Numbered from the stretch's first letter, positions 15,022-25,417 are shown. The stretch is 25,562 bases of DNA from Candidatus Helarchaeota archaeon (GCA_029838215.1 JALGVI010000078.1:1-25562), one strand, 5' to 3'. Notes: generated by a model not told the origin, from the sequence alone. Translations and numbers: made by a program.

Positions 15022-17433
15022 ATGATGTCGAAACGAGCAAAAAAACTCATTACATCCCTCTTGCTGGTGACTTTTATCGTCGTTTTTGGGATTTTAATTT
15101 ATCAAATTACTATTCCAGACATAACTGGGCACGTTAATAGGGATCAAAATGAGATACACGCTGCTGCTCAATCGTTTGATAGCTATTTTGAATTGTTTTA
15201 CCCAATGGAAATCAATGGGCAAACTAATATCGTGAATTGTGATGTTGAATTTCCCTATGCGTTTAAAATCGAAGAGAGCAACCTTGATGGAATATTTGCA
15301 AGCCTGACAATGAATCTAACGTTTGATGTTTCTTCTCTACCCATTCCCGAGACAAATTTAACAATCTTAAGGTTGGATTTTGAAACGAGATCTCGTACCA
15401 CATACAGTGATGACGTCAATTTTTCAAGATTACTCGTGAAAATATACAATGAATCTGATGGTGGATATTCGTTATTATCCAATCAGGTATGGGATCACTC
15501 CGTCATTCAATATTTTCTAGGTGATGGGACTGTTAATATTACCATTGACATCCCGAACTTTGTCATGAATGGTGAGGTAAAATTTCAATTAGTCCTCGAA
15601 CAATGGCTTCAAATTCCCCATTCAAATTATGATTTGCGCTTCTACCTTTATTATTGCTCATTGATCTTGGGACAAAACATTGAATTTGTCCCTTATCATC
15701 CTATTTCTGCTGAGATCGTGGAATATAATTCAAGATATGAACTCACCGGTTCACTTGAAGATTTAAAAATGGAAGATAATCAGACTTTTAATCTTGAAAT
15801 TTACCCCACGTTGCAGGACACATTGGAAATCGTTGAGATGGACTTGACGTTCAACGTGAATGGGTGTCAGTATGATGAGATTTTTGGTGTAATAATAGAA
15901 CACGATGATTTCTTTGAAATCAGTCTGTCTAATTCATACTATTACTTACCCCGTTTATACTTGCAGGATAAAACCACTCAAACTTTTAATTATTTTACAA
16001 ATTCTCGTGTTAAATCATCTGAAAACACGAGTCATTGCATTTTCGTTAGTGGAAATCAGTGGGTTGATGAAGATGGATTATTAACCATCCGTTATAGATT
16101 AGAATTAAACGACCATGAAGGGTTTAATCCCGCATATTATCGTTTTGATCAATCTGTAATCTATATAATTCGCCGTAACTTACCACTCGTTAATGTAAAT
16201 GTACCATCTGTAGGGTATGTATTTGAAAATCTCACGATTAGTATCGAATCAATTTCGTTTAATGGTATTTACTTCCATCCTATTTCTTCAATAATTTTTG
16301 ATTTTGGAACGTGGCAAGAAACGTATGACGTGCAAGATGGATTAAATGAAATTAACATGACTCGCAATGTTGCATGCTCCGAGAATTTTGATTTAATCAT
16401 ATATTATGATTCAAATGAATCATTTTTCGTTCAGGGTCATTATAATATTGAATTTCGGAAGATTGACGTGGAAATAACCACATCAGAACCCCTAGTTGTC
16501 CCGTTTAAAATAACCGGCTCCGTGATTTTAACTCGACTCGATTCTGGCATCCCTATTCCAAATAAAACTTTTAATTTTCTTGTTTATCATGGATATAATC
16601 CAACACCTGATTACATGACCACTGAAACCACGGATGCGCAAGGAGGCTTTAATTATACCTATTATATTGATCCTTTACGCTATCTGGATGAGTATTATAG
16701 GATTACGATCGAGGTCGAGCAGGATGATGTCTATAATTACAACATAGAAACTATTGGTGTTATTTGTAGCGAGGCTCCTGCAAACATCACGTTATTCTCA
16801 CTAACTCCTATTAAAAACGATGGATATGCAGGCGATACTATAGAAATCGAATACATGATCGATTGCTTAGTTCCGTTATATCAAGTGCAACTACTTCTTA
16901 ATGATACAGTACTGCATGTACTTTCATCAGCATTGGGAATAATTCGTTACAATTTTACGGGCGTGAAAGGTAATAATACCTATAGCATTCGAGTCATAAA
17001 TGACCGCATGCAAGTTTCACAGTCTAACTCGATTGAACTCAACTTACTGGCACGTTCCATCGATATAAGTTTAAACTCATGGCAACATCATGACGTGTTG
17101 GAGTTTTCATTAGTAATGACTGATGTTCTAACGGGATCATACTGTAATAATGCCCAAGTATTTGTCGAAATTCGTGATAACGGGCTTCTAGTTTTTTCGC
17201 GTGGATATTCTGCTGAAAATCCAATACATGACAGTTATAAGTTTGATTTCAGCACGGATCATTATTTTCAAATCCTAGTTTACGTCGAATCGGATGTTTA
17301 CACCATCGAAATGACGCACGCACAAGTATCCTACACCGCTTATCCATTTGTAGTCATCTTGACGGGTTTAATTACAATTCTTGGATCAAGCGGCGGAGGT
17401 GTAATGTTTTATTATAAAAAGAGGCGAACATGA
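15022..17433 (+). CDS. Large cell-surface protein (803 aa), N-terminal signal/anchor helix, beta-rich body, C-terminal TM
   Basis: KRAKK plus hydrophobic helix at the N-terminus; Ig/beta-sandwich-like strand patterns and many N-x-S/T sequons; YPFVVILTGLITILG...YYKKRRT at the C-terminus. Confidence 0.85.
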   Translation: MMSKRAKKLITSLLLVTFIVVFGILIYQITIPDITGHVNRDQNEIHAAAQSFDSYFELFYPMEINGQTNIVNCDVEFPYAFKIEESNLDGIFASLTMNLTFDVSSLPIPETNLTILRLDFETRSRTTYSDDVNFSRLLVKIYNESDGGYSLLSNQVWDHSVIQYFLGDGTVNITIDIPNFVMNGEVKFQLVLEQWLQIPHSNYDLRFYLYYCSLILGQNIEFVPYHPISAEIVEYNSRYELTGSLEDLKMEDNQTFNLEIYPTLQDTLEIVEMDLTFNVNGCQYDEIFGVIIEHDDFFEISLSNSYYYLPRLYLQDKTTQTFNYFTNSRVKSSENTSHCIFVSGNQWVDEDGLLTIRYRLELNDHEGFNPAYYRFDQSVIYIIRRNLPLVNVNVPSVGYVFENLTISIESISFNGIYFHPISSIIFDFGTWQETYDVQDGLNEINMTRNVACSENFDLIIYYDSNESFFVQGHYNIEFRKIDVEITTSEPLVVPFKITGSVILTRLDSGIPIPNKTFNFLVYHGYNPTPDYMTTETTDAQGGFNYTYYIDPLRYLDEYYRITIEVEQDDVYNYNIETIGVICSEAPANITLFSLTPIKNDGYAGDTIEIEYMIDCLVPLYQVQLLLNDTVLHVLSSALGIIRYNFTGVKGNNTYSIRVINDRMQVSQSNSIELNLLARSIDISLNSWQHHDVLEFSLVMTDVLTGSYCNNAQVFVEIRDNGLLVFSRGYSAENPIHDSYKFDFSTDHYFQILVYVESDVYTIEMTHAQVSYTAYPFVVILTGLITILGSSGGGVMFYYKKRRT

Positions 17434-18077
17434 TGAGTATTGAGTTAGATGGAATTGATGAAGGTTGGAGAGCCGAGAAAAAATCGGGTCGAAATTATAA
17501 AGGGCTATTGGTATTAACGAGTGGCATTTTGGTTGTCGTAATTTCAATAGCGATGGGCTTTATCTTTGCATTAAATCCTGCTTTTCAGATAACGCTTGTT
17601 GAGCTTATTTTTGCGGGCATTCAAACACTGGTTTTGGTATGTTTCGGTTTTTTAACCCTTGCACTCTTAATTGTAATGGTATTAATGAATGCAGATCTGG
17701 CACAAGGACGAGGGGCACTGAGAGCAACTCAATTTACACTCATAGCTGCGCTCATTGGTTTTATAATATATGATGTTTTCTTAAATGAAATCTTTGGTTT
17801 CCACGTGATGAGTATTTCAACAGGAAATTTGGTTTTTCCCTGGATCATATCCGTCATCCAAATCATCATATGGATTTCACTTATCTTATTGTTTCTCCTA
17901 CTTGCAATTCAAGTCACCTTAAAGGCTATAAGTATCGATAAATCCACGGGAATGACCTATAATCTCATTATCTGCGTGATGAGCATCGGGATCGTCTTCA
18001 TTCTAAACATCATTTATATTAACTACTACGGCGTGCCGATAATAATTCCTTTTAATCCTTCTGGGGTGATTCCGTGA
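17430..18077 (+). CDS. Polytopic membrane protein (215 aa, ~5 TM)
   Basis: Five long hydrophobic segments; ATGA overlap with the upstream gene. Confidence 0.85.
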   Translation: MMSIELDGIDEGWRAEKKSGRNYKGLLVLTSGILVVVISIAMGFIFALNPAFQITLVELIFAGIQTLVLVCFGFLTLALLIVMVLMNADLAQGRGALRATQFTLIAALIGFIIYDVFLNEIFGFHVMSISTGNLVFPWIISVIQIIIWISLILLFLLLAIQVTLKAISIDKSTGMTYNLIICVMSIGIVFILNIIYINYYGVPIIIPFNPSGVIP

Positions 18078-18328
18078 GCTGGATTTACATGCTTGATTTA
18101 TTCATGACTTTAACGCTATATTATGCGCGGGCAATTTTCCTCATGCTTGTATTTCTTCTATCTGTTTCGTATGCTTATGAAGGATTCAAGATCATTGCGG
18201 ATGTTAACCCCAAACTCGTGGGTAAGAGCGTGTTGTATAAACACCTGATTTCTCTTTTAATTCTCGTCTTCATCGATTTCATGTTTTGGCTAATCTTCAA
18301 AATTCCGCTTCACAGTTGGACAAGGTGA
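18074..18328 (+). CDS. Small two-helix membrane protein (84 aa), VirB2/TrbC-pilin-like architecture
   Basis: Hydrophobic helix, GFKIIADVNPKLVGKSVL loop, second hydrophobic helix; GTGA overlap with the upstream gene. Confidence 0.75.
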   Translation: MSWIYMLDLFMTLTLYYARAIFLMLVFLLSVSYAYEGFKIIADVNPKLVGKSVLYKHLISLLILVFIDFMFWLIFKIPLHSWTR

Positions 18329-18332
18329 TATA

Positions 18333-21300
18333 ATGACTGTATTGTTACAACAATTACTGGATGATATTCAAGAACAAGGTAACATTCATCATGCCTTTGA
18401 AAATCAAGCAACACGTATTTCACTTGTATATTCCCTGAAAAAACTTGAGCACTATTCTGTCTTTTGCATTTTCATCTTGAAAGATGCGGGGCACGTGGAA
18501 TCCCTTCATGATCGGAATGTACGGGAGATCATTAACGAAGTTGAACACGTAAAAAAACTTATCTTGGCTGGTGAAATTAGCGCTTTACGCCTTCCCGATA
18601 TTCCTAGATTTCAAGTCCGAACTCTTTCATTTTTCGATTTAAGAATTCATGATCGTCTTCGACTTCAACACGTTTCTTTAGAACATGATGGCAAACCCGT
18701 GTTAACTTTCATCTTTCCCGCCCTAATTACAAATGTCCCCAGCATTCATCGAACACTAGCGTGTGCCGAGTGCCGTTTAGATCTAGTTCCTGCTCCCTTG
18801 GTTTCGGAATTTATTCGAAACATGAATGCAGAAATCGTTGAAAAATCAGCCCACATTTATGATGCCTCTAAAGATCGACACGTACAATGGAATAATCGGG
18901 TTAATTTAGTCGGAATGATTCTGACTCTGGTATTTGCGGGATTCACGACACCACTAATGATCCTCGCCCCTTTTTTCAAGATGTCTCCTTTATTCTTCAT
19001 TGACTTGTATTGGATGTTGATTTCATTTGACGCTATTGGAATGATCGGCCATGCCATTTTGCGCCATAAAGCATATCTACGTGAAATCCTTGCAGAATGG
19101 AACCATCCGCAACTGTTCGACATTGCTAGGGGGTCTAACCCTCCTGAAAGACATGTCGAACCAAATATCGAAAAAACAGATCTCTCCGAAAACATTGTTG
19201 ACTACGGGCAAGTTCGGGATGAGATCGATGATTCGAAACGTAATATCCATCACGGATCATTAACCCGAACATCAAAAAGAAGTATTATCGTCCCAAAGAA
19301 AGCTAACACGATAAAAAAGCAGGAATCAACTCAAATTCATTGGCATGCTTTTACGGGGGAGTATTCTCTCATCCAAACAATCCGAAAGGAATACGAATCT
19401 GCGAAATCTGCTCAAGAAGAGAAAAAATTTCGCATTCATTTTCTCAATATAATACAGGGAACCGTGGCCTATAATTGGCTTCAACTCGGAAAGAAAATTC
19501 CAAAGTCCCGTAAGCTGGATCCCGTAGAAAATACATTAGACTCATTAGCGCGCTTGCAAGCACGTGGCATGAGCCATCCGTATAAAAGCCTGTTACAACA
19601 GTTCCTTGAAGTGCTGTCGCATAATCGAAGTCTATTTGCTGAAGAGATGCAAGTGATGCTTTCACGCCTTGAACAAATGCTTATTCGTTTAGGAGTTCTG
19701 GCGGGCAGGATCGAGAAACAAACACCGATTTCTCATGACGATGAGTCGTCTTTTCCATTAAATGAAGGAGTTATTAATGAAGACCTCACAAAAATTCCAG
19801 ATCTGCGTGTTCAGCGATATCTAAATAATAAACCAAAAACACGCTGTCGTAAAGAACAGATCGAGGATATGCTCATGCAGGCGAACCGCTACCTTCACGT
19901 AGGGGAAGACGATGCAATCAAGGATGTTCTAAAAGGATTTCCCGGTCTCCTATTCAAAGAAGTCTTGATAAATTCTGCTAACATTGAAGAAAATCGATGC
20001 CATACTTTTGAGCAAATTTTTAAGAAGAAGGGTGTAATGCTTACCGAACAACAACTCCTAAAATCAATATCAAGCATCAATAGTGCTTTATACGAATATC
20101 TGAAAGCGTTTTACAAAGATTTCCAAGAAATACAAGCCAAAAAAAAGGCACCTGGCGAAACTCTCTATAAAATCTGCCAACAAGCATGGAAAAAAATGAG
20201 CATGAATCTTTATGCTTCACCTGTTAAAGATGAATTCCCGATACGCAGCAATGAAATTGGAATGGAAGAAAAAACGCAAGAAGAAAAGAGACTCACGCCA
20301 ATCATTCCTGTCACCGATAAAGATATCATAAAAAATGAATTAAAAGGACAATTCATCGAAATAAAGACAATCGCCAAGTTAAATCTAGTTCTAAATGAGA
20401 CCAGTAAAGATTATCCCATATGTATTGTTTCATATAGATCAACATCCATGCCGCAATTCGTTGAATTACTGAAGATAAGAAAGGAATTTCGCGATTTGAT
20501 GTTTTATCTGTTAAACGTTGAGGAATTGAATGGAGACGATGATATATTTCAAGTCGTAGACTCTCCAAAAACCCTGCTCAAATATCGCACGCTCAAATAC
20601 ACTCATGAATACGTGGATTTTCAGGATTGTCATGATTTACTTAAGAAATTCATGCGTGAATTGAATGACTACAAGCATTCAAAACTTGTCAAGTCTGGCG
20701 TTCCTATTAATGGCAAATCCGGTCCGAAGGAAACAGACACAACCACGAATTCAATTGAAGAAATCTTTGATCCGAATTCTCCCGTCATTCATATCAAGGA
20801 TGAACGACCTTGGTTGCACCACATCAGACACAATACCAACCCTGTTTTCGTTTTACTTCATTCTGGCACGAACAACGCATATATCGAAGCATTGAACGCG
20901 ATAAAGACACTTGACATCCCAAATAATATCACGATCATTGAAGCCGACCAGCGTCTTGGATTCGTGCAAGAGACTTTTCCTGAAGAGGTCGACCTGGCAA
21001 TCTTAAAGCTGGATGGTGAAACCCGCGAAACCCTGAGTATAGATCAACTACGTGGAGCTCTCGAGATTAATGTTGATGCAGTTGGTACTAAAAAAACTCC
21101 GAAAAAAGAAGAAAATGAAGATGTCAAGAAGTTGGACGTCCTAAAATTCAAGAGGATTGTCGTAGACGGAACAAACGTCTTCAATTTCATAAAAAACGAC
21201 TTACAACAATTTGGCGAAATCGTGGATTTTAAGATTTTTCTGAAGTTACGGGAGTTGTTATACGATCTCGGATTCGAAGATGTTATCATTTACTTTGATT

Positions 21301-22397
21301 CAAACACGTATCATAATTTCTCAAATAAAGAGAATAAACAACTTAATAAACTCATCAAGACAGGTCGTTTCCGTCAATCAGCATCAGGTGAAAAAGCCGA
21401 CCCGCACATCATTACGATGGCAACAGGACCCATTCCCGGCTATATTCTTTCTCGAGATAAGTTTTGGAATTATGATGATGATTTCCAGACGAGATCCTCT
21501 GAATTTATCAAGAGACTCATTGCTTTCGAAATAACGGATGGCTTGATTCATTTTGAGCCAAAAGATAAGAAATTGGCAAATACCCCAATATTTAAAAAAC
21601 GGTATAAACTATTTGATGCATTTGAAATGGGTATAGAGGCAATTTCTAAAAGGAATAAGAATGTCAATGAGAAGAAAGCCAAGAAAAAGAAAAATCACTC
21701 AAAACCAAACAAATCTGTCATGAATACTACCGTGCAGACAGAAAATGAACCTGTAGAAAAACCCATTCCGAATGAAATCGAGATGCATGCATGTATAAAG
21801 GCTCTATCATTTCTGAGACAGAATGCCTTTCATGATGCGAAGGCTTTCAAAAAACGTTTTGAGAATGAATATGATTTCTTATTAGGGAATGAGTACATTA
21901 TCCGGGAACGCGCGGGTTCTTCGGATAGACCTCACGTAAACATCACTACAAAAGGAATTGCATTTGTCAAGCGATTTTTTATTGTTGATATTATTTTAGG
22001 TGAGTTTGATCCCATTAGTGGACCCGAAATCATCTATCCTACGGCATACAACACGGGAGATTTCGCCAACCAACCCTTAGCTGGTTTGGAAACACGAGCA
22101 AGTCTAAAAAAGGTTCTTCAGAATTGTTTTGACAAGCATTCTTATCTTCAGAGCTTTCAGGACGAACTCCAAGAATTCAACTTGATTTATCGCACGTGGA
22201 AAATAAAAAATAATGCACTCCCCCGGGGTGAAGCCGTTTTTGGCGTGCTAATTTTCTGTCGTAAGTTATTTAATGAAGAATTTTCTCACGCGTTCTCAAA
22301 GGAGTTAAAACAAGTTCTCAATGGATTTCAACCCACGCTTGATTATCGTAGTGAACTGGTAGAATTCATTCAAAAAATTGGGAGGGATTTGCTTTAA
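18333..22397 (+). CDS. 1354-aa multidomain membrane protein: 2 TM, helical domains, two thioredoxin-like folds, NYN/Regnase-type PIN ribonuclease, winged helix, C-terminal uDENN/longin domain
   Basis: TM at aa ~190-243; RIVVDGTN (D945), KADPHI (D1023), ILSRDKF (D1042); NITTKGIAFVK; EFDPISGPEIIY and LPRGEAVFGVLIF. Confidence 0.85.
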   Translation: MTVLLQQLLDDIQEQGNIHHAFENQATRISLVYSLKKLEHYSVFCIFILKDAGHVESLHDRNVREIINEVEHVKKLILAGEISALRLPDIPRFQVRTLSFFDLRIHDRLRLQHVSLEHDGKPVLTFIFPALITNVPSIHRTLACAECRLDLVPAPLVSEFIRNMNAEIVEKSAHIYDASKDRHVQWNNRVNLVGMILTLVFAGFTTPLMILAPFFKMSPLFFIDLYWMLISFDAIGMIGHAILRHKAYLREILAEWNHPQLFDIARGSNPPERHVEPNIEKTDLSENIVDYGQVRDEIDDSKRNIHHGSLTRTSKRSIIVPKKANTIKKQESTQIHWHAFTGEYSLIQTIRKEYESAKSAQEEKKFRIHFLNIIQGTVAYNWLQLGKKIPKSRKLDPVENTLDSLARLQARGMSHPYKSLLQQFLEVLSHNRSLFAEEMQVMLSRLEQMLIRLGVLAGRIEKQTPISHDDESSFPLNEGVINEDLTKIPDLRVQRYLNNKPKTRCRKEQIEDMLMQANRYLHVGEDDAIKDVLKGFPGLLFKEVLINSANIEENRCHTFEQIFKKKGVMLTEQQLLKSISSINSALYEYLKAFYKDFQEIQAKKKAPGETLYKICQQAWKKMSMNLYASPVKDEFPIRSNEIGMEEKTQEEKRLTPIIPVTDKDIIKNELKGQFIEIKTIAKLNLVLNETSKDYPICIVSYRSTSMPQFVELLKIRKEFRDLMFYLLNVEELNGDDDIFQVVDSPKTLLKYRTLKYTHEYVDFQDCHDLLKKFMRELNDYKHSKLVKSGVPINGKSGPKETDTTTNSIEEIFDPNSPVIHIKDERPWLHHIRHNTNPVFVLLHSGTNNAYIEALNAIKTLDIPNNITIIEADQRLGFVQETFPEEVDLAILKLDGETRETLSIDQLRGALEINVDAVGTKKTPKKEENEDVKKLDVLKFKRIVVDGTNVFNFIKNDLQQFGEIVDFKIFLKLRELLYDLGFEDVIIYFDSNTYHNFSNKENKQLNKLIKTGRFRQSASGEKADPHIITMATGPIPGYILSRDKFWNYDDDFQTRSSEFIKRLIAFEITDGLIHFEPKDKKLANTPIFKKRYKLFDAFEMGIEAISKRNKNVNEKKAKKKKNHSKPNKSVMNTTVQTENEPVEKPIPNEIEMHACIKALSFLRQNAFHDAKAFKKRFENEYDFLLGNEYIIRERAGSSDRPHVNITTKGIAFVKRFFIVDIILGEFDPISGPEIIYPTAYNTGDFANQPLAGLETRASLKKVLQNCFDKHSYLQSFQDELQEFNLIYRTWKIKNNALPRGEAVFGVLIFCRKLFNEEFSHAFSKELKQVLNGFQPTLDYRSELVEFIQKIGRDLL

Positions 22398-23425
22398 TGA
22401 CAAGATATAAACAAAAAATCGTCTTTTTTGGACCTTCAAATGCAGGTAAAACATCCTTGCAGAAATTCTTCTGGGAAAAAAAGACATACGATGAGATTAA
22501 AGACTTACCACCAACAAAAAGCTATGATTATTCAGACAGGCCACTACGTTTTGGTCCAATAGAAATATCTTCCCTAGATCTTGGCGGACAATCAAGCCTC
22601 ATCAAGCAATGGCTAGATGATGATGCTGAGTTTCGCTGTTTTGAACACGCGAATGTCGTGATATGCGTTTTGGATTTCTCCGATGAATTGCTCGGTAAAA
22701 GTAACTTTCTCCAAAAAATGGAAGAAATAAAACAACTGTTGCGATTATTAATCGCGTCTTTGCGTGTTCAGGTTTTGCAATATCAAGACGTGGACTTGTT
22801 GATTTTCCTTCACAAGTGGGATCGCGTGGTTGAAATTAAGAAGAATGAGCAAGATCTTCGTGAATTAATCATTTCAAATCTTAAGCAGATTGAAAAAGAA
22901 GAAAATTTCGAGAATATCTTGACAGAAGGGAAAAAGAATTCAAAATATGAGAAAATATTGCCATTCTCAATTAATTTCAGGGGATTTCACTTTACATCCA
23001 TTAAAGACTTGCGATTCTCACCCCGTCTGGCTTTAAAGAAAGTCCTTCCAAGGACATCTCAATTTGTCATTGCTTGTAATCAATTTCGAAGAAATTTTTT
23101 GAAACTGTCGCAATTTTTCTCCTTGTTTCTCATCGATCAGAACCTACTCGACATTGAATCCGTTCAATTTCCCGTCTTGCATGATTTTGAGAGCATTAAA
23201 CAATTCACATTTCGCACGCTTTTATCGTGTTTTGATTTGGAAACTGTCACGTACGTAGTCGTCCGTCAAGAAAATGGATTAGGCCCACTTGATATTTTTC
23301 TTCTCAGGGTTAATCCTGACATCTATTGTTTGCTCGTGGCGAAAACGACGAGCCAAGATAAAACACTACAACTACTTCTCGAATTCAGGCGGTCAATTCA
23401 AGCCATTGATTTGATTTATGAGTGA
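22397..23425 (+). CDS. Gtr1/RagA-family small GTPase with C-terminal roadblock/longin-like domain
   Basis: G1 GPSNAGKT, G2 PT, G3 DLGGQ, G4 HKWD, G5 TSIKD (RagA has DCGGQ, HKMD, TSIWD); ~130-aa C-terminal domain; TAATG overlap with the upstream gene. Confidence 0.88.
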   Translation: MTRYKQKIVFFGPSNAGKTSLQKFFWEKKTYDEIKDLPPTKSYDYSDRPLRFGPIEISSLDLGGQSSLIKQWLDDDAEFRCFEHANVVICVLDFSDELLGKSNFLQKMEEIKQLLRLLIASLRVQVLQYQDVDLLIFLHKWDRVVEIKKNEQDLRELIISNLKQIEKEENFENILTEGKKNSKYEKILPFSINFRGFHFTSIKDLRFSPRLALKKVLPRTSQFVIACNQFRRNFLKLSQFFSLFLIDQNLLDIESVQFPVLHDFESIKQFTFRTLLSCFDLETVTYVVVRQENGLGPLDIFLLRVNPDIYCLLVAKTTSQDKTLQLLLEFRRSIQAIDLIYE

Positions 23426-23431
23426 GTCATC

Positions 23432-25417
23432 TTGTCGATCCCCGTGGAAACGCGTCCATTTTTCCCATTCGCCAAAGTTCGACCCGGGCAGGCAACGCTC
23501 ATCACGAAACTATACCAAGCAGTAAAGACGAACAAACACTCCTGTTTTGATGCAGCAAATGGGATCGGAAAGACGGTTTCCGTGCTTGCAAGCACCTTAC
23601 CCGTAATTCTCGAGCAAGGAAAACTTCTGATTTATTGTGCACGCACGCATTCCCAGATGAATCGAGTATTGGATGAAATTCAATTAATCAATGAAAAAGC
23701 ACCATTAAAGACTTCAGCAATTTCTTTAAAGGGAAAAAAGGAAATGTGCATTAACCGCACGGTTTTGGATGCCGTGACAAGCTCTGCGGATCTGATTGAT
23801 TATTGTAACAGTCTAAAGGGGCGGAAACCATCCGAACAATGTCCATTTTTCCGAAATTTCCGCGAACAAAAAGGAAAAATCACTAAACTCTTTAATAAAG
23901 CAGTTTGTTCTGATCAAGTATTGATTTCTGAAGGATATCAGATGCAAATTTGCCCTTACGAGCTTTCTAGAAGCCTTCTCTCCCGTGTCGATGTCGTAAT
24001 CACGACGTATAATTACCTGATACACCCTGAAATTCAACGGCTTTTTTTTAATGATATCAATCGGACAATTTCCGAGTGCGTCATCGTGTTTGATGAATCA
24101 CATAACCTTCCGGATATTGCCATGAATGCCAATTCTGATTATATCTCGTTAAATTCCGTGCTTCGAGCCAAAAAAGAGTTGAAAACAATGGAAGGCTCGC
24201 ACGAGGTCATTGAAAAGGTGTTGGATTTCTTCGCCGATTATCTCGAACAAGAGCTCAGGCGTTATGAATCGTCAGGAGCACGATGGTCTGAAGAACACGG
24301 AATAAATGAAATCATTCTTCGGCAGAAACTTGTTGCCCTTGGTTTAAACGAAGGCATCATTCAAGATGCAATTGCTTTAGGGCGCCAATATCGACTTGAA
24401 AAAATAAAAATGTTCGAAGATGCCGGCACGAAGAAACGCGTGAATTCTTCTCTCAATAAATTTGGCCGATTTCTTAGTCTACTCGATCAATCTTTGGATG
24501 ATCATTGCTATTTTCATGAGTTGGAATTCGTTAAAGGAAAAAAACAGACGATCGTGCGTCTCCATGCCCGTTGCCTTGATGCTCGTCCAATTTTGGTGCC
24601 ATTATTCAACGGTGTAGTCTCCTGCCTTTCAGGTACGCTTCGTCCCGTAAAGGCATTCTGTCAGCTCGTGGGATATCCCTCATCTTATACTCAGGGAGTC
24701 ATTCCAAGCCCATTTCGATTCCAGAATATTTGTTGCCTTGCCATGCGGGATATTTCAACACGATATGCCGTGCGAACCCCTCAACTTTATTCCATCTTGC
24801 GCGGTCACCTGCGGGAAGTAATCGAAAATACACCCGGAAATGTTGGCATCTTTTGTGCTTCTTACGAAATATTGAGCAAGATATTGAACTACTCGTTCCG
24901 TCGTTATCTGAATACGGATTTGAACATTCCAGTATTTCGTGAATATCAAGATCTTGAGCGAAGTTTCTCAAGCACACAAAATGAAGAAATGATACAAAAG
25001 TTCAAGAAGATAGGGCGGGCAGGCAAGAAGGCCGTGCTATTTGGCGTGTGTGGGGGACGAAATTCTGAAGGTGTTGATTTTCCGGGCAATGAAATGAGGA
25101 CCGTTGTTATCGTGGGGTTTCCCCTTCTCCGACCTTCAATACGACTAGAAGCCCTTGAGACATTTTACAAGCAAGAATTTGGAGAAGAATTAGCACGGTT
25201 ATATGCATATCAAATCCCTGCCATTCGAAAATCCAACCAAGCTGCTGGGCGTCCCATTCGTAAAATCGATGATCATGGGGCAATTATTTTTCTCGATGAG
25301 CGTTTCACCTATAAAAAAGTGCGAAAATATCTGGCTTCGTGGCTTACTGATACAATGCGTGTCATTCCAAATGAAAAAGGTGTCATTGCAGCCCGGCTAA
25401 AAGAATTTGATTTTTAG
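23432..25417 (+). CDS. xpd: XPD/Rad3/DinG-family 5'-3' helicase with Fe-S cluster
   Basis: Q motif RPGQ, ANGIGKT, four Cys (EMCIN, DYCNS, EQCPFF, QICPYE), DESHN, SGTL, SEGVDF, QAAGRPIR. Confidence 0.92.
   Translation: MSIPVETRPFFPFAKVRPGQATLITKLYQAVKTNKHSCFDAANGIGKTVSVLASTLPVILEQGKLLIYCARTHSQMNRVLDEIQLINEKAPLKTSAISLKGKKEMCINRTVLDAVTSSADLIDYCNSLKGRKPSEQCPFFRNFREQKGKITKLFNKAVCSDQVLISEGYQMQICPYELSRSLLSRVDVVITTYNYLIHPEIQRLFFNDINRTISECVIVFDESHNLPDIAMNANSDYISLNSVLRAKKELKTMEGSHEVIEKVLDFFADYLEQELRRYESSGARWSEEHGINEIILRQKLVALGLNEGIIQDAIALGRQYRLEKIKMFEDAGTKKRVNSSLNKFGRFLSLLDQSLDDHCYFHELEFVKGKKQTIVRLHARCLDARPILVPLFNGVVSCLSGTLRPVKAFCQLVGYPSSYTQGVIPSPFRFQNICCLAMRDISTRYAVRTPQLYSILRGHLREVIENTPGNVGIFCASYEILSKILNYSFRRYLNTDLNIPVFREYQDLERSFSSTQNEEMIQKFKKIGRAGKKAVLFGVCGGRNSEGVDFPGNEMRTVVIVGFPLLRPSIRLEALETFYKQEFGEELARLYAYQIPAIRKSNQAAGRPIRKIDDHGAIIFLDERFTYKKVRKYLASWLTDTMRVIPNEKGVIAARLKEFDF

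Follow-up and report, generated by a model that had tools for sequence, protein, structure and literature searches.

A membrane-anchored NYN-domain protein encoded beside a Rag-like small GTPase in a conserved gene cluster of an Asgard-type archaeon

The window, i.e., the whole stretch of 25,562 nucleotides that was analyzed, derives from a fragmented MAG of a Candidatus Helarchaeota archaeon (170 contigs, 6.2% contamination). On its plus strand we observed a conserved gene cluster in which a surface-type protein (P0002) and small membrane proteins (P0003 and P0004) are followed by a giant multidomain protein (P0001), a small GTPase (P0005), and a helicase (P0006; Table 1). The same gene order, from the surface protein via the small membrane proteins, the NYN giant, and the GTPase to XPD, was found in three assemblies from different genera, in a housekeeping-type setting where no mobile-element genes were seen. 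We refer to the two further full-length loci as L008 and G001, and to the locus of a shorter relative of P0001 as G006. Homologs of P0002, for which the sole Pfam signal was a sub-threshold Ig-like match, occupy the same position in L008 (46% identity), G001 (25%, E = 7e-50), and G006 (22%, E = 2e-19), and small membrane proteins are present at the position of P0003 in all four loci. P0006 matched TIGR00604 with 312 bits (cut-off 247), and an XPD gene directly follows the GTPase gene in the three full-length loci (42% identity in G001). The stop of P0001 and the start of the GTPase gene overlap by a single base (TAATG, 22395-22399). The family was found in one order only of the Asgard (Lokiarchaeia-like) class, where 3 of 8 genomes carry the cluster and none of the other genomes searched in the class or phylum does, a distribution that fits vertical inheritance and not island-like spread.

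Table 1. Genes of the cluster and segments of P0001, with positions counted from the first letter of the window.
Feature	Residues or length	Position (nt)	Strand	Basis or remark
Surface-type protein P0002, first gene of cluster	803 aa	15022..17433	+	N- and C-terminal hydrophobic anchors, many N-x-S/T
Polytopic membrane protein P0003	215 aa	17430..18077	+	Start overlaps P0002 stop
Small membrane protein P0004	84 aa	18074..18328	+	
P0001, multidomain membrane-anchored NYN protein	1354 aa	18333..22397	+	ORF; colinear orthologs P0008 and P0012
N-terminal domain	1-189	18333..18899	+	Conserved: 35% identity to P0008, 24% to P0012
Two-helix membrane hairpin	190-245	18900..19067	+	Hydropathy peaks at aa 190-215 and 220-238
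Low-complexity linker and middle region	246-340 and 341-640	19068..20252	+	
Thioredoxin-fold domain 1	672-790	20346..20702	+	No CxxC
Thioredoxin-fold domain 2	815-918	20775..21086	+	No CxxC; missing in P0012
NYN (Zc3h12a-type PIN) nuclease domain	940-1090	21150..21602	+	PF11977; family profile against structures; invariant residues
Lys-rich linker	1091-1147	21603..21773	+	21% Lys; 13% identity to orthologs
Winged-helix domain	1148-1212	21774..21968	+	
C-terminal alpha/beta domain, predicted GTPase-docking	1213-1354	21969..22394	+	Conservation; complex prediction
Gtr1/RagA-like small GTPase P0005 with C-terminal extension	342 aa	22397..23425	+	PF04670, PF00025, motifs
XPD/Rad3-family helicase P0006	661 aa	23432..25417	+	6 nt downstream of GTPase gene

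P0001 is a new architecture assembled from known parts. According to the ORF call and the translation of the window, it forms one open frame without a stop or frame break, and the GC content is even along the gene. Colinear orthologs are present in two more assemblies (P0008, 1372 aa, 31% identity; P0012, 1334 aa, 21% identity), and a third holds the shorter P0014 (911 aa), which lacks both the C-terminal domain (C-domain) and an adjoining GTPase gene; comparisons across four relatives below refer to P0001, P0008, P0012, and P0014. An earlier note on this DNA, made from the sequence alone, had considered that the frame might be an assembly chimera. That P0001 is such an artefact, or several genes run together, is exceedingly improbable, given the unbroken frame, its even GC content, and the colinear proteins of 1334-1372 aa with identical domain order in three independent assemblies. 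The domain calls of that note held in nearly every case, the exception being the longin label discussed below.

The N-terminal domain has six residues (R148, D150, V152, E167, E170, and K180) that are invariant in all four sequences. Searches of Pfam and of PDB sequences gave no match to it, and its Atlas look-alikes scored only at chance level (0.79). The two transmembrane helices called earlier at 18900-19065 coincide with the Kyte-Doolittle hydrophobic stretches of the hairpin, which shares 43% identity with P0008. Basic residues lie on both flanks of this hairpin, from which we infer, by the positive-inside rule, that the N- and C-terminal parts of the protein face the cytoplasm. The region that follows (aa 246-640) had no Pfam match and is partly deleted in P0012. 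R-x4-H occurs in P0001 at aa 108, 825, and 1162 only, and the absence of a HEPN motif from the putatively helical region was thus correctly called; the lack of R-x4-H in aa 335-640 speaks against placing the middle region among HEPN RNases.

Both thioredoxin-pattern segments can be superposed on thioredoxins, with the element order b-a-b-a-b-(a)-b-b-a, and, as had been claimed, they lack the redox motif: CxxC is absent from aa 655-935, and the sole CxxC of P0001, at 144-147, is not conserved. An identity as a redox-active thioredoxin or PDI a-domain is ruled out by this absence. Non-catalytic thioredoxin folds are found in the PDI b/b' domains, ERp27, ERp44, calsequestrin, and Dim1/U5-15kD. 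P0001 resembles the PDI b/b'-type proteins in its tandem folds without CxxC, but differs from them in that its folds are embedded in a nuclease protein and would be cytoplasmic, in an archaeon; at just 7-16% identity to PDI-type thioredoxin folds, the resemblance is confined to the level of fold. Further downstream, the composition of the Lys-rich linker agrees with the earlier call, as does the winged helix, in which three helices and a beta hairpin wing superpose on known winged helices, among many others those of RQC and Hel308.

The nuclease domain was identified by several searches. The segment aa 920-1090 matched PF11977 (E = 1.2e-5, 25.6 bits, cut-off 23, profile positions 3-144 of 154), and the ortholog P0008 carries a precomputed match to the same family. 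The whole-protein Pfam scan of P0001 and a genome-wide PF11977 scan both missed it, and the match is therefore borderline for a single sequence. However, phmmer connected the domain with canonical NYN proteins from bacteria and archaea (P0010 and P0011), and a family profile of eight sequences (A5) matched the structures of ZC3H12B, KHNYN, ZC3H12C, and ZC3H12A with E values from 1.2e-10 to 1.5e-8; for a clade profile of three sequences (A6), the top match was KHNYN at an E value of 0.6 only. The key residues are D945 (21165-21167), N948, D989, D1023 (21399-21401), S1040, and D1042 (21456-21458). Of these, D945, N948, D1023, and D1042 are kept in the alignment of all four relatives, while a stand-alone NYN paralog in L008 (P0009) has lost two of the four. 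The PIN domain that had been proposed from D945, D1023, and D1042 was thereby borne out, and on sequence grounds we take both its NYN identity and the conservation of its catalytic residues as established.

P0001 thus has its nuclease domain family in common with Regnase-1/ZC3H12A, ZC3H12B/C, KHNYN, and N4BP1 (PF11977), and, as in the Regnase-type RNases, the motifs D-G-[ST]-N and S-x-D are retained together with the Asp of A-D-x. Characterized NYN domains are RNases, and by analogy the substrate of P0001 would be RNA. Unlike these eukaryotic enzymes, the archaeal protein has no CCCH zinc finger, KH, or ubiquitin-binding domain; instead, it is membrane-anchored and fused to thioredoxin-fold, winged-helix, and predicted GTPase-docking domains. 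Two acidic positions of Regnase-1, which we take to be D225 and D248 in its numbering, align with A1022 and N1046 of P0001.

The adjoining P0005 matched PF04670 (E = 7.8e-12, 45.6 bits, cut-off 22) and PF00025 (E = 5.8e-8), and it carries the G1-G4 motifs GPSNAGKT, T40, DLGGQ, and HKWD (an HKxD motif). In L008 and G001, too, the gene after the giant encodes an ortholog of P0005 (63% and 31% identity, respectively). Since the G domain begins at residue 5, P0005 has no amphipathic N-terminal helix; its C-terminal extension does not resemble the C-domain of P0001. This C-domain is the best-conserved part of the otherwise fast-evolving giant (47% identity to P0008, compared with 31% overall), with R1298 and E1300 invariant in the three orthologs. 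The earlier note had placed a longin domain at 21975-22397. For this segment, the longin label finds no support in Pfam or PDB sequences: aa 1200-1354 and the P0008 equivalent had no Pfam match at E up to 10, neither NPR2 nor any other longin family was matched, the genome had no PF06218 match, and a profile search against PDB sequences returned nothing relevant. The AF2 model is likewise poor, mostly at pLDDT below 50 (block means 32-58, with 51-58 for the two C-terminal helices), and its low-confidence order of b-b-a-(a)-b-b-a-a compares with b-b-a-b-b-b-a-a for longin. Within the predicted complex with P0005 (see below), ESMFold2 folded the C-domain at pLDDT 74-81. Language-model look-alikes from the Atlas scored 0.85-0.87, and one of their clusters carries NPR2 on 19% of its members, which is a lead only. 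The C-domain is possibly longin- or roadblock-like.

When P0005 (alignment A9) and the C-domain (alignment A11) were submitted to complex prediction, we obtained an ipSAE of 0.68 (runs 0.69, 0.60, and 0.68), with the best of three controls at 0.00. Among 80 solved complexes, 58 attained this mark, as did 2 of 110 mismatched pairs, a calibration that is rough here since our own alignments were used; the score expresses model confidence, from alignments of only three rows, and may echo memorized complexes of longin or roadblock proteins with GTPases. The runs share at least 90% of their contacts, at a partner pLDDT of at least 73. The predicted interface comprises residues 5-7, 42-49, 56-60, and 78-84 of the GTPase, including the invariant K7 and P49, and residues 1226-1231 and 1255-1269 of the C-domain, including the invariant G1230, R1255, and K1259. 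It lies on the interswitch/beta1 face of the GTPase, away from the nucleotide pocket, and the invariant R1298 is absent from its confident contacts, so that the C-domain may equally relate to P0005 as effector, anchor, GAP, or GEF. The C-domain is thus predicted, from modeling, to bind the G domain of P0005. The two also co-occur across loci, being found together in three loci and jointly missing from that of P0014.

A related arrangement is the Asgard Roadblock/small GTPase/DENN-like operon (Liu et al., bioRxiv 10.1101/2020.10.19.343400), where a small GTPase likewise stands beside a large lineage-specific multidomain protein with a GTPase-platform-type domain. There, however, the GTPase is Rab- or MglA-like instead of Gtr1/RagA-like, and the P0001 cluster has neither a separate Roadblock gene nor a DENN match, while its giant adds the membrane hairpin and thioredoxin-fold domains. 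Further comparators are the Rag GTPases with Ragulator or GATOR1 (NPRL2 longin), MglA/MglB in bacteria, and the SRX domain of SR-alpha with SR-beta. As in Rag/Ragulator, MglA/MglB, and SRX/SR-beta, a Rag/Arf-like GTPase is predicted here to be held at the membrane via a small alpha/beta platform of a membrane-attached partner, where in the model the first long helix of this partner forms the contact together with the adjacent hairpin. The C-domain, whose platform fold is putative, does not resemble NPRL2, LAMTOR, or MglB in sequence. Moreover, Rag- and MglA-type platforms are dimeric and sit over the switches, whereas the predicted contact of P0001 is that of a monomer on the interswitch face. 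Compared with the GAP arginine finger of the GATOR1 NPRL2 type, R1298 is invariant in the three orthologs but is not at the predicted interface. Unlike the partners of Rag, MglA, and SRX-bound GTPases, P0001 carries a nuclease.

The explanation that accounts best for these data, and which we hold to be modestly probable, is that P0001 acts as a nuclease tethered to the membrane, which either recruits the small GTPase or is gated by it. The protein would face the cytoplasm, tethered by its hairpin, with a metal-dependent NYN (Zc3h12a/Regnase-type PIN) endonuclease as its catalytic part. The two redox-dead thioredoxin folds, as in PDI b/b', would likely offer protein- or ligand-binding surfaces, the Lys-rich linker would be flexible, and the winged helix would likely contact nucleic acid or protein. 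The C-domain would dock the G domain of the co-translated P0005; P0005 itself is devoid of a membrane anchor, so the giant would bring it to the membrane. The nucleotide state of P0005 may then control where or when the nuclease acts, with the upstream-encoded surface and small membrane proteins as the likely input side. Of the signal-gated RNase at the membrane that had been proposed earlier, the anatomy is supported (hairpin, NYN acidic residues, predicted docking, and co-occurrence), and the longin assignment is putative. The fully specified version, in which the longin-type domain of a protein anchored by a hairpin draws a Rag-like GTPase to the membrane and this GTPase thereby controls a Regnase-type RNase, is a tentative possibility that we would sooner doubt than believe. 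If true, it would constitute a naturally occurring Asgard switch of the small-GTPase type whose enzymatic effector can be identified, would provide a matched GTPase-partner pair from overlapping genes, and would imply that membrane-localized, GTPase-controlled RNA cleavage existed in archaeal relatives of eukaryotes. P0001 and P0005 form a directly testable GTPase-plus-enzyme pair from an Asgard-type archaeon. There is a tension within this explanation, as NYN domains cut RNA, yet the neighbors XPD, RadA, and the SSB-like protein handle DNA.

It is unlikely, in our view, that P0001 serves mainly as a membrane anchor and regulatory platform of the GTPase, analogous to Ragulator/LAMTOR1 or a longin GAP/GEF. 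In that event, the C-domain would determine which nucleotide P0005 carries or where it is located, the NYN domain would be accessory, binding substrate only or serving a separate task, and the real output of the switch would lie elsewhere, e.g., in XPD or the surface protein. The predicted docking to the G domain points in this direction, as do the far better conservation of the GTPase (63%) than of the giant (31%), the invariance of R1298 and E1300, the known role of Asgard longin and roadblock proteins as GTPase platforms (PMC10933270; bioRxiv 10.1101/2020.10.19.343400), and, as a lead only, the look-alike cluster with NPR2. However, R1298 falls outside the confident interface, and the C-domain matched no longin family. 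The catalytic residues of the NYN domain are, furthermore, kept even in the short form P0014, so the nuclease is the older, constant part.

For that nuclease, the earlier note had offered three roles, namely defense or abortive infection, a filter on imported nucleic acid, and translational shut-off, all of which stay hypothetical here. An antiviral abortive-infection module, in which the surface or membrane proteins sense infection, the GTPase switches, and the NYN domain degrades host or viral RNA, seems to us quite improbable. Nuclease effectors are common in defense systems, the giant diverges fast (31% and 21% identity) beside better-conserved neighbors, and its domain content is variable, with the second thioredoxin fold missing in P0012, the decayed paralog P0009 in L008, and the short form in G006. 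Against this, PADLOC-DB 2.0 returned no match for P0001, its NYN segment, P0005, P0002, or P0012, and matched P0006 to DinG-type models only as a family relative; the constant gene order, housekeeping-type setting, and restricted distribution described above also count against it. Membrane-associated uptake, export, or repair of DNA by the cluster is improbable to a slightly lesser degree. Here, the tethered nuclease would trim nucleic acid, XPD would unwind it, and the GTPase would time the process, resembling the bacterial competence nuclease and helicase. That characterized NYN domains are RNases speaks against it, the Pfam scan of the cluster and the window annotation revealed no family of channels, pilins, or ATPases, and part of the neighborhood may be inherited synteny: RadA, adjacent to the cluster in the window and L008, is ~5 kb off in G001 with other genes between. 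The support for an import or repair role is contextual, as XPD follows the GTPase in every full-length locus and RadA, a RadB-like ATPase, Hel308, FEN1, and PolB are encoded in the same window; the winged helix resembles, among many others, those of RQC and Hel308. The gene after the short form P0014 encodes an SSB/RPA-like OB protein, L008 has an RPA-like gene close to its cluster, and a second XPD paralog is kept elsewhere in the genome.

The window is a contig from an archaeal MAG of 3.6 Mb (170 contigs, 94% complete). Many genes in the window serve replication and repair, among them those for PolB, FEN1, a Hel308-type helicase, a RadB-like ATPase and RadA. From position 15022 onward, six plus-strand genes are closely packed, neighbors overlapping or lying a few bases apart, among them the gene for the NYN protein P0001 (hereafter, the giant). 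The surface-type protein carries hydrophobic anchors at its N- and C-terminus and many N-x-S/T sites, and its only family signal was an Ig-like match below threshold (MtxA_IG-like, E = 0.011). The small membrane proteins vary in number and length among genomes (compare the window with L016:8049-8561 and L022:6105-6587) and appear to be assembled from two-helix repeats that terminate in short motifs of the type F-[GK]-[IV]-[PH]-[IL]...P. The helicase is one of two XPD/Rad3 paralogs in this genome (the other at G000:C88:9331-11262), which are 32% identical to each other and, at 312 and 325 bits, both score above the cut-off of TIGR00604.

Genes of the plus-strand cluster in the window
Gene product	Position	Length	Strand	Remark
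Surface-type protein (P0002)	15022-17433	803 aa	+	First gene of the cluster
Two small membrane proteins	17430-18328		+	Between surface protein and giant
Giant (P0001)	18333-22397	1354 aa	+	Single ORF
GTPase (P0005)	22397-23425	342 aa	+	ATG shares a base with the giant's stop (TAATG)
XPD/Rad3 helicase (P0006)	23432-25417		+	Starts 6 nt after the GTPase gene

A search of 1.8 billion representative proteins with the C-terminal 715 residues of P0001 returned one colinear relative, P0008 (E = 2e-96), a protein of 1372 aa that is 31% identical to P0001 end to end in a full-length alignment. Its gene lies on a 56-kb contig from another sample, where the order of a divergent RadA gene, 803-aa protein, membrane proteins, giant, GTPase and XPD is that of the window. 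A profile of the N-terminal part retrieved P0012, a third and more divergent ortholog of 1334 aa (21% identity), in the other genome of the window's GTDB family (GCA_019058315.1), preceded by an 827-aa surface protein and two small membrane proteins and followed by a GTPase and XPD. Because colinear orthologs thus occur in three independent assemblies, an assembly chimera, the concern raised in the earlier note, is ruled out and the ORF is genuine. The fourth relative, P0014 (911 aa), belongs to the same order but to a sister family. It comprises the N-terminal domain, membrane hairpin, middle part and NYN domain, directly after which it terminates, without the winged helix and the C-terminal domain (C-domain; aa 1213-1354 of P0001). 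In its cluster (L022:3650-10271, genome G006), a surface-protein homolog (22% identity) and a 161-aa polytopic membrane protein lie upstream. The search for the same architecture elsewhere, as proposed earlier, hence yielded two colinear orthologs and one short form, all within one order.

The family appears to be narrowly distributed. In profile searches of 400 genomes of the phylum, conducted separately with the N-domain (aa 1-189) and with the GTPase, every member found belonged to the GTDB family of the window, and a four-sequence N-domain profile run against 161 genomes of the class added one further genome, from the sister family; the giant family went undetected in all other genomes of these two sets and is known from four sequences of one order. 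The whole of P0001 matched nothing in Pfam, NCBIfam or the PDB sequences, and a word-based homolog search with it returned only P0001 itself. Equally, the C-domain alignment gave no match in a word-based search of proteins of 82-265 aa, the N-domain alignment retrieved only P0012 and P0001 from among longer proteins, and a related-locus search of genome contigs gave no confirmed relative.

At its N-terminus, the giant carries a conserved domain of 189 residues (window 18333-18899) with R148, D150, V152, E167, E170 and K180 invariant in all four sequences. Its profile gave chance-level rows only against PDB sequences, and an Atlas feature search likewise remained at chance level (0.79), with PDC/Cache-type sensor domains as leads. 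Hydropathy places two transmembrane helices at aa 190-215 and 220-238, which bears out those described in the earlier note, and since this hairpin is flanked by basic residues on both sides, both ends of the protein should be cytoplasmic. A HEPN domain was rejected for the following region, where the R-x4-H motif is missing (aa 335-640), just as had been noted before. For the thioredoxin-fold region, the Atlas feature search gave no usable match.

The segment at aa 920-1090 exceeds the PF11977 cut-off in a segment search, and a profile built from it and its relatives matches the solved domains of ZC3H12A/B/C and KHNYN at about 1e-10. The Regnase-type PIN domain proposed earlier on the basis of D945, D1023 and D1042 is thereby upheld, as these residues, together with N948, are retained in all four family members. 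The match of the single P0001 sequence is weak, and we therefore regard its membership of the NYN family as having good support, though short of certainty. While the NYN domain is common to P0001 and the Regnase/KHNYN family, the remainder of the giant is unlike those proteins. The linker that follows (aa 1091-1147) is indeed lysine-rich, as claimed (21% lysine), and is not conserved.

Further NYN proteins were seen at two other loci. Between the giant and the GTPase of the P0008 locus lies P0009 (L008:14116-14610), a 164-aa stand-alone NYN copy (35% identity) in which two catalytic residues are lost: the D1023 site reads G-P and the D1042 site S-R-N. It may represent a degenerate duplicate, or else an inactive decoy or regulator. 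In another genome of the class (L021:6832-9177), a 781-aa protein combines an N-terminal helix-hairpin-helix with a strong NYN match (PF11977, E = 2e-17), after which come about 490 unassigned residues. No GTPase gene lies near it, so that we rejected a general link between NYN proteins and GTPases.

The GTPase P0005 matches Gtr1/RagA (E = 8e-12) better than Arf and displays the motifs GxxxxGKT, DxxGQ and HKxD. Its G domain begins at residue 5, which leaves it without an Arf-type membrane helix, and it ends in a 150-residue extension to which no fold was assigned. The C-domain of the giant and this extension are not detectably related (hhalign probability, 1.5%). An AF2 model of aa 1145-1354 was usable for the winged helix only, and searches with it in Foldseek, VIA and Atlas returned winged helices only, and thus carry no information on the fold of the C-domain. 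The earlier label of this domain as a longin fared less clearly: profile and PDB sequence searches gave no longin, roadblock or NPRL2 match, with chance-level rows only for the C-domain profile against PDB sequences, and PF06218 (NPR2) had no match in the window's own genome and one sub-threshold match elsewhere among 101 genomes of the class, whereas the element order in the AF2 model of the domain (b-b-a-(a)-b-b-a-a; pLDDT mostly <50) is compatible with a longin, albeit no proof of one.

Because the C-domain is the best conserved part of P0001 (47% identity versus 31% overall) and is found only at loci where a GTPase gene follows, we predicted its complex with P0005. The prediction scored 0.68, compared to 0.00 for the best of three controls; such a score was attained by 58 of 80 solved complexes and by 2 of 110 mismatched pairs, counts that are rough given the three-row alignments supplied by the analyst. 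Contact agreement between runs was at least 90% and partner pLDDT at least 73. In the confidently predicted contacts, the C-domain engages through its first hairpin (aa 1226-1231) and its first long helix (aa 1255-1269), and the G domain through strands b1, b2 and b3 plus residues 78-84. Invariant residues of both partners lie within this interface; the invariant R1298 is absent from the confident contacts. The prediction supports, but does not demonstrate, binding of the C-domain to P0005, and it may in part echo memorised longin/roadblock-GTPase complexes.

All four relatives share a surface protein (homologs at all four loci, 22-46% identity), small membrane proteins and an NYN protein with a hairpin anchor. 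To this core cluster, one family would have added the winged helix, the predicted GTPase-docking domain and the GTPase itself. We lean towards a membrane-tethered nuclease that would recruit, and be controlled by, the Rag-like GTPase, with the extracellular and membrane proteins as its input side. That P0001 serves mainly as a platform regulating or anchoring the GTPase seems to us rather unlikely; in favor of this rival, P0005 shows far stronger conservation than the giant (63% versus 31% identity to the L008 copies). A DNA-handling machine operating together with XPD we consider improbable; in its favor, XPD lies directly downstream of the GTPase in all three full-length loci, and the short form P0014 is followed by an SSB/RPA-like OB-fold protein. 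Neither a GTPase nor XPD is encoded downstream of P0014.

We give slightly less credence still to an antiviral module. The earlier note had offered defence among its interpretations; however, PADLOC gives no match in its favor and the chromosomal setting of the cluster is stable. Overall, the observations of that note are largely confirmed and their interpretation is partly supported, with a tethered nuclease under GTPase control as the reading that we prefer.

Rab-, Arf- and Rag-like GTPases number in the dozens in Asgard archaea, which also encode numerous longin and roadblock proteins (PMC10933270). Each genome of the window's group holds dozens of small-GTPase candidates and the look-alike clusters stem from Promethearchaeota; we take the source to be an Asgard archaeon, probably of the Lokiarchaeia. 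As Tran et al. report, the GTPase genes generally lie outside the operons of their longin/roadblock partners, which makes pairing hard, so that regulators and effectors cannot be paired and the outputs of the switches cannot be assigned (PMC10933270). Liu et al. described extensive lineage-specific domain shuffling in these archaea, with many NPRL2-like longin fusions and a Roadblock/GTPase/DENN operon (bioRxiv 10.1101/2020.10.19.343400). The architecture of P0001 does fit such shuffling of Asgard signature proteins. In the literature searched, we found no paper linking Asgard archaea and NYN domains, and the searchable literature describes no counterpart that joins an NYN domain to redox-dead thioredoxin folds in tandem, a winged helix and a membrane hairpin. 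The giant is a new architecture assembled from known parts, of narrow distribution and unusually testable. Here, the pairing of a GTPase with its partner can be read from the genome, through overlapping genes, the co-occurrence of C-domain and GTPase, and a complex prediction that passes its controls, and the predicted partner carries a putative enzyme domain whose activity can be assayed; together, these make one Asgard GTPase circuit amenable to ordinary biochemistry.
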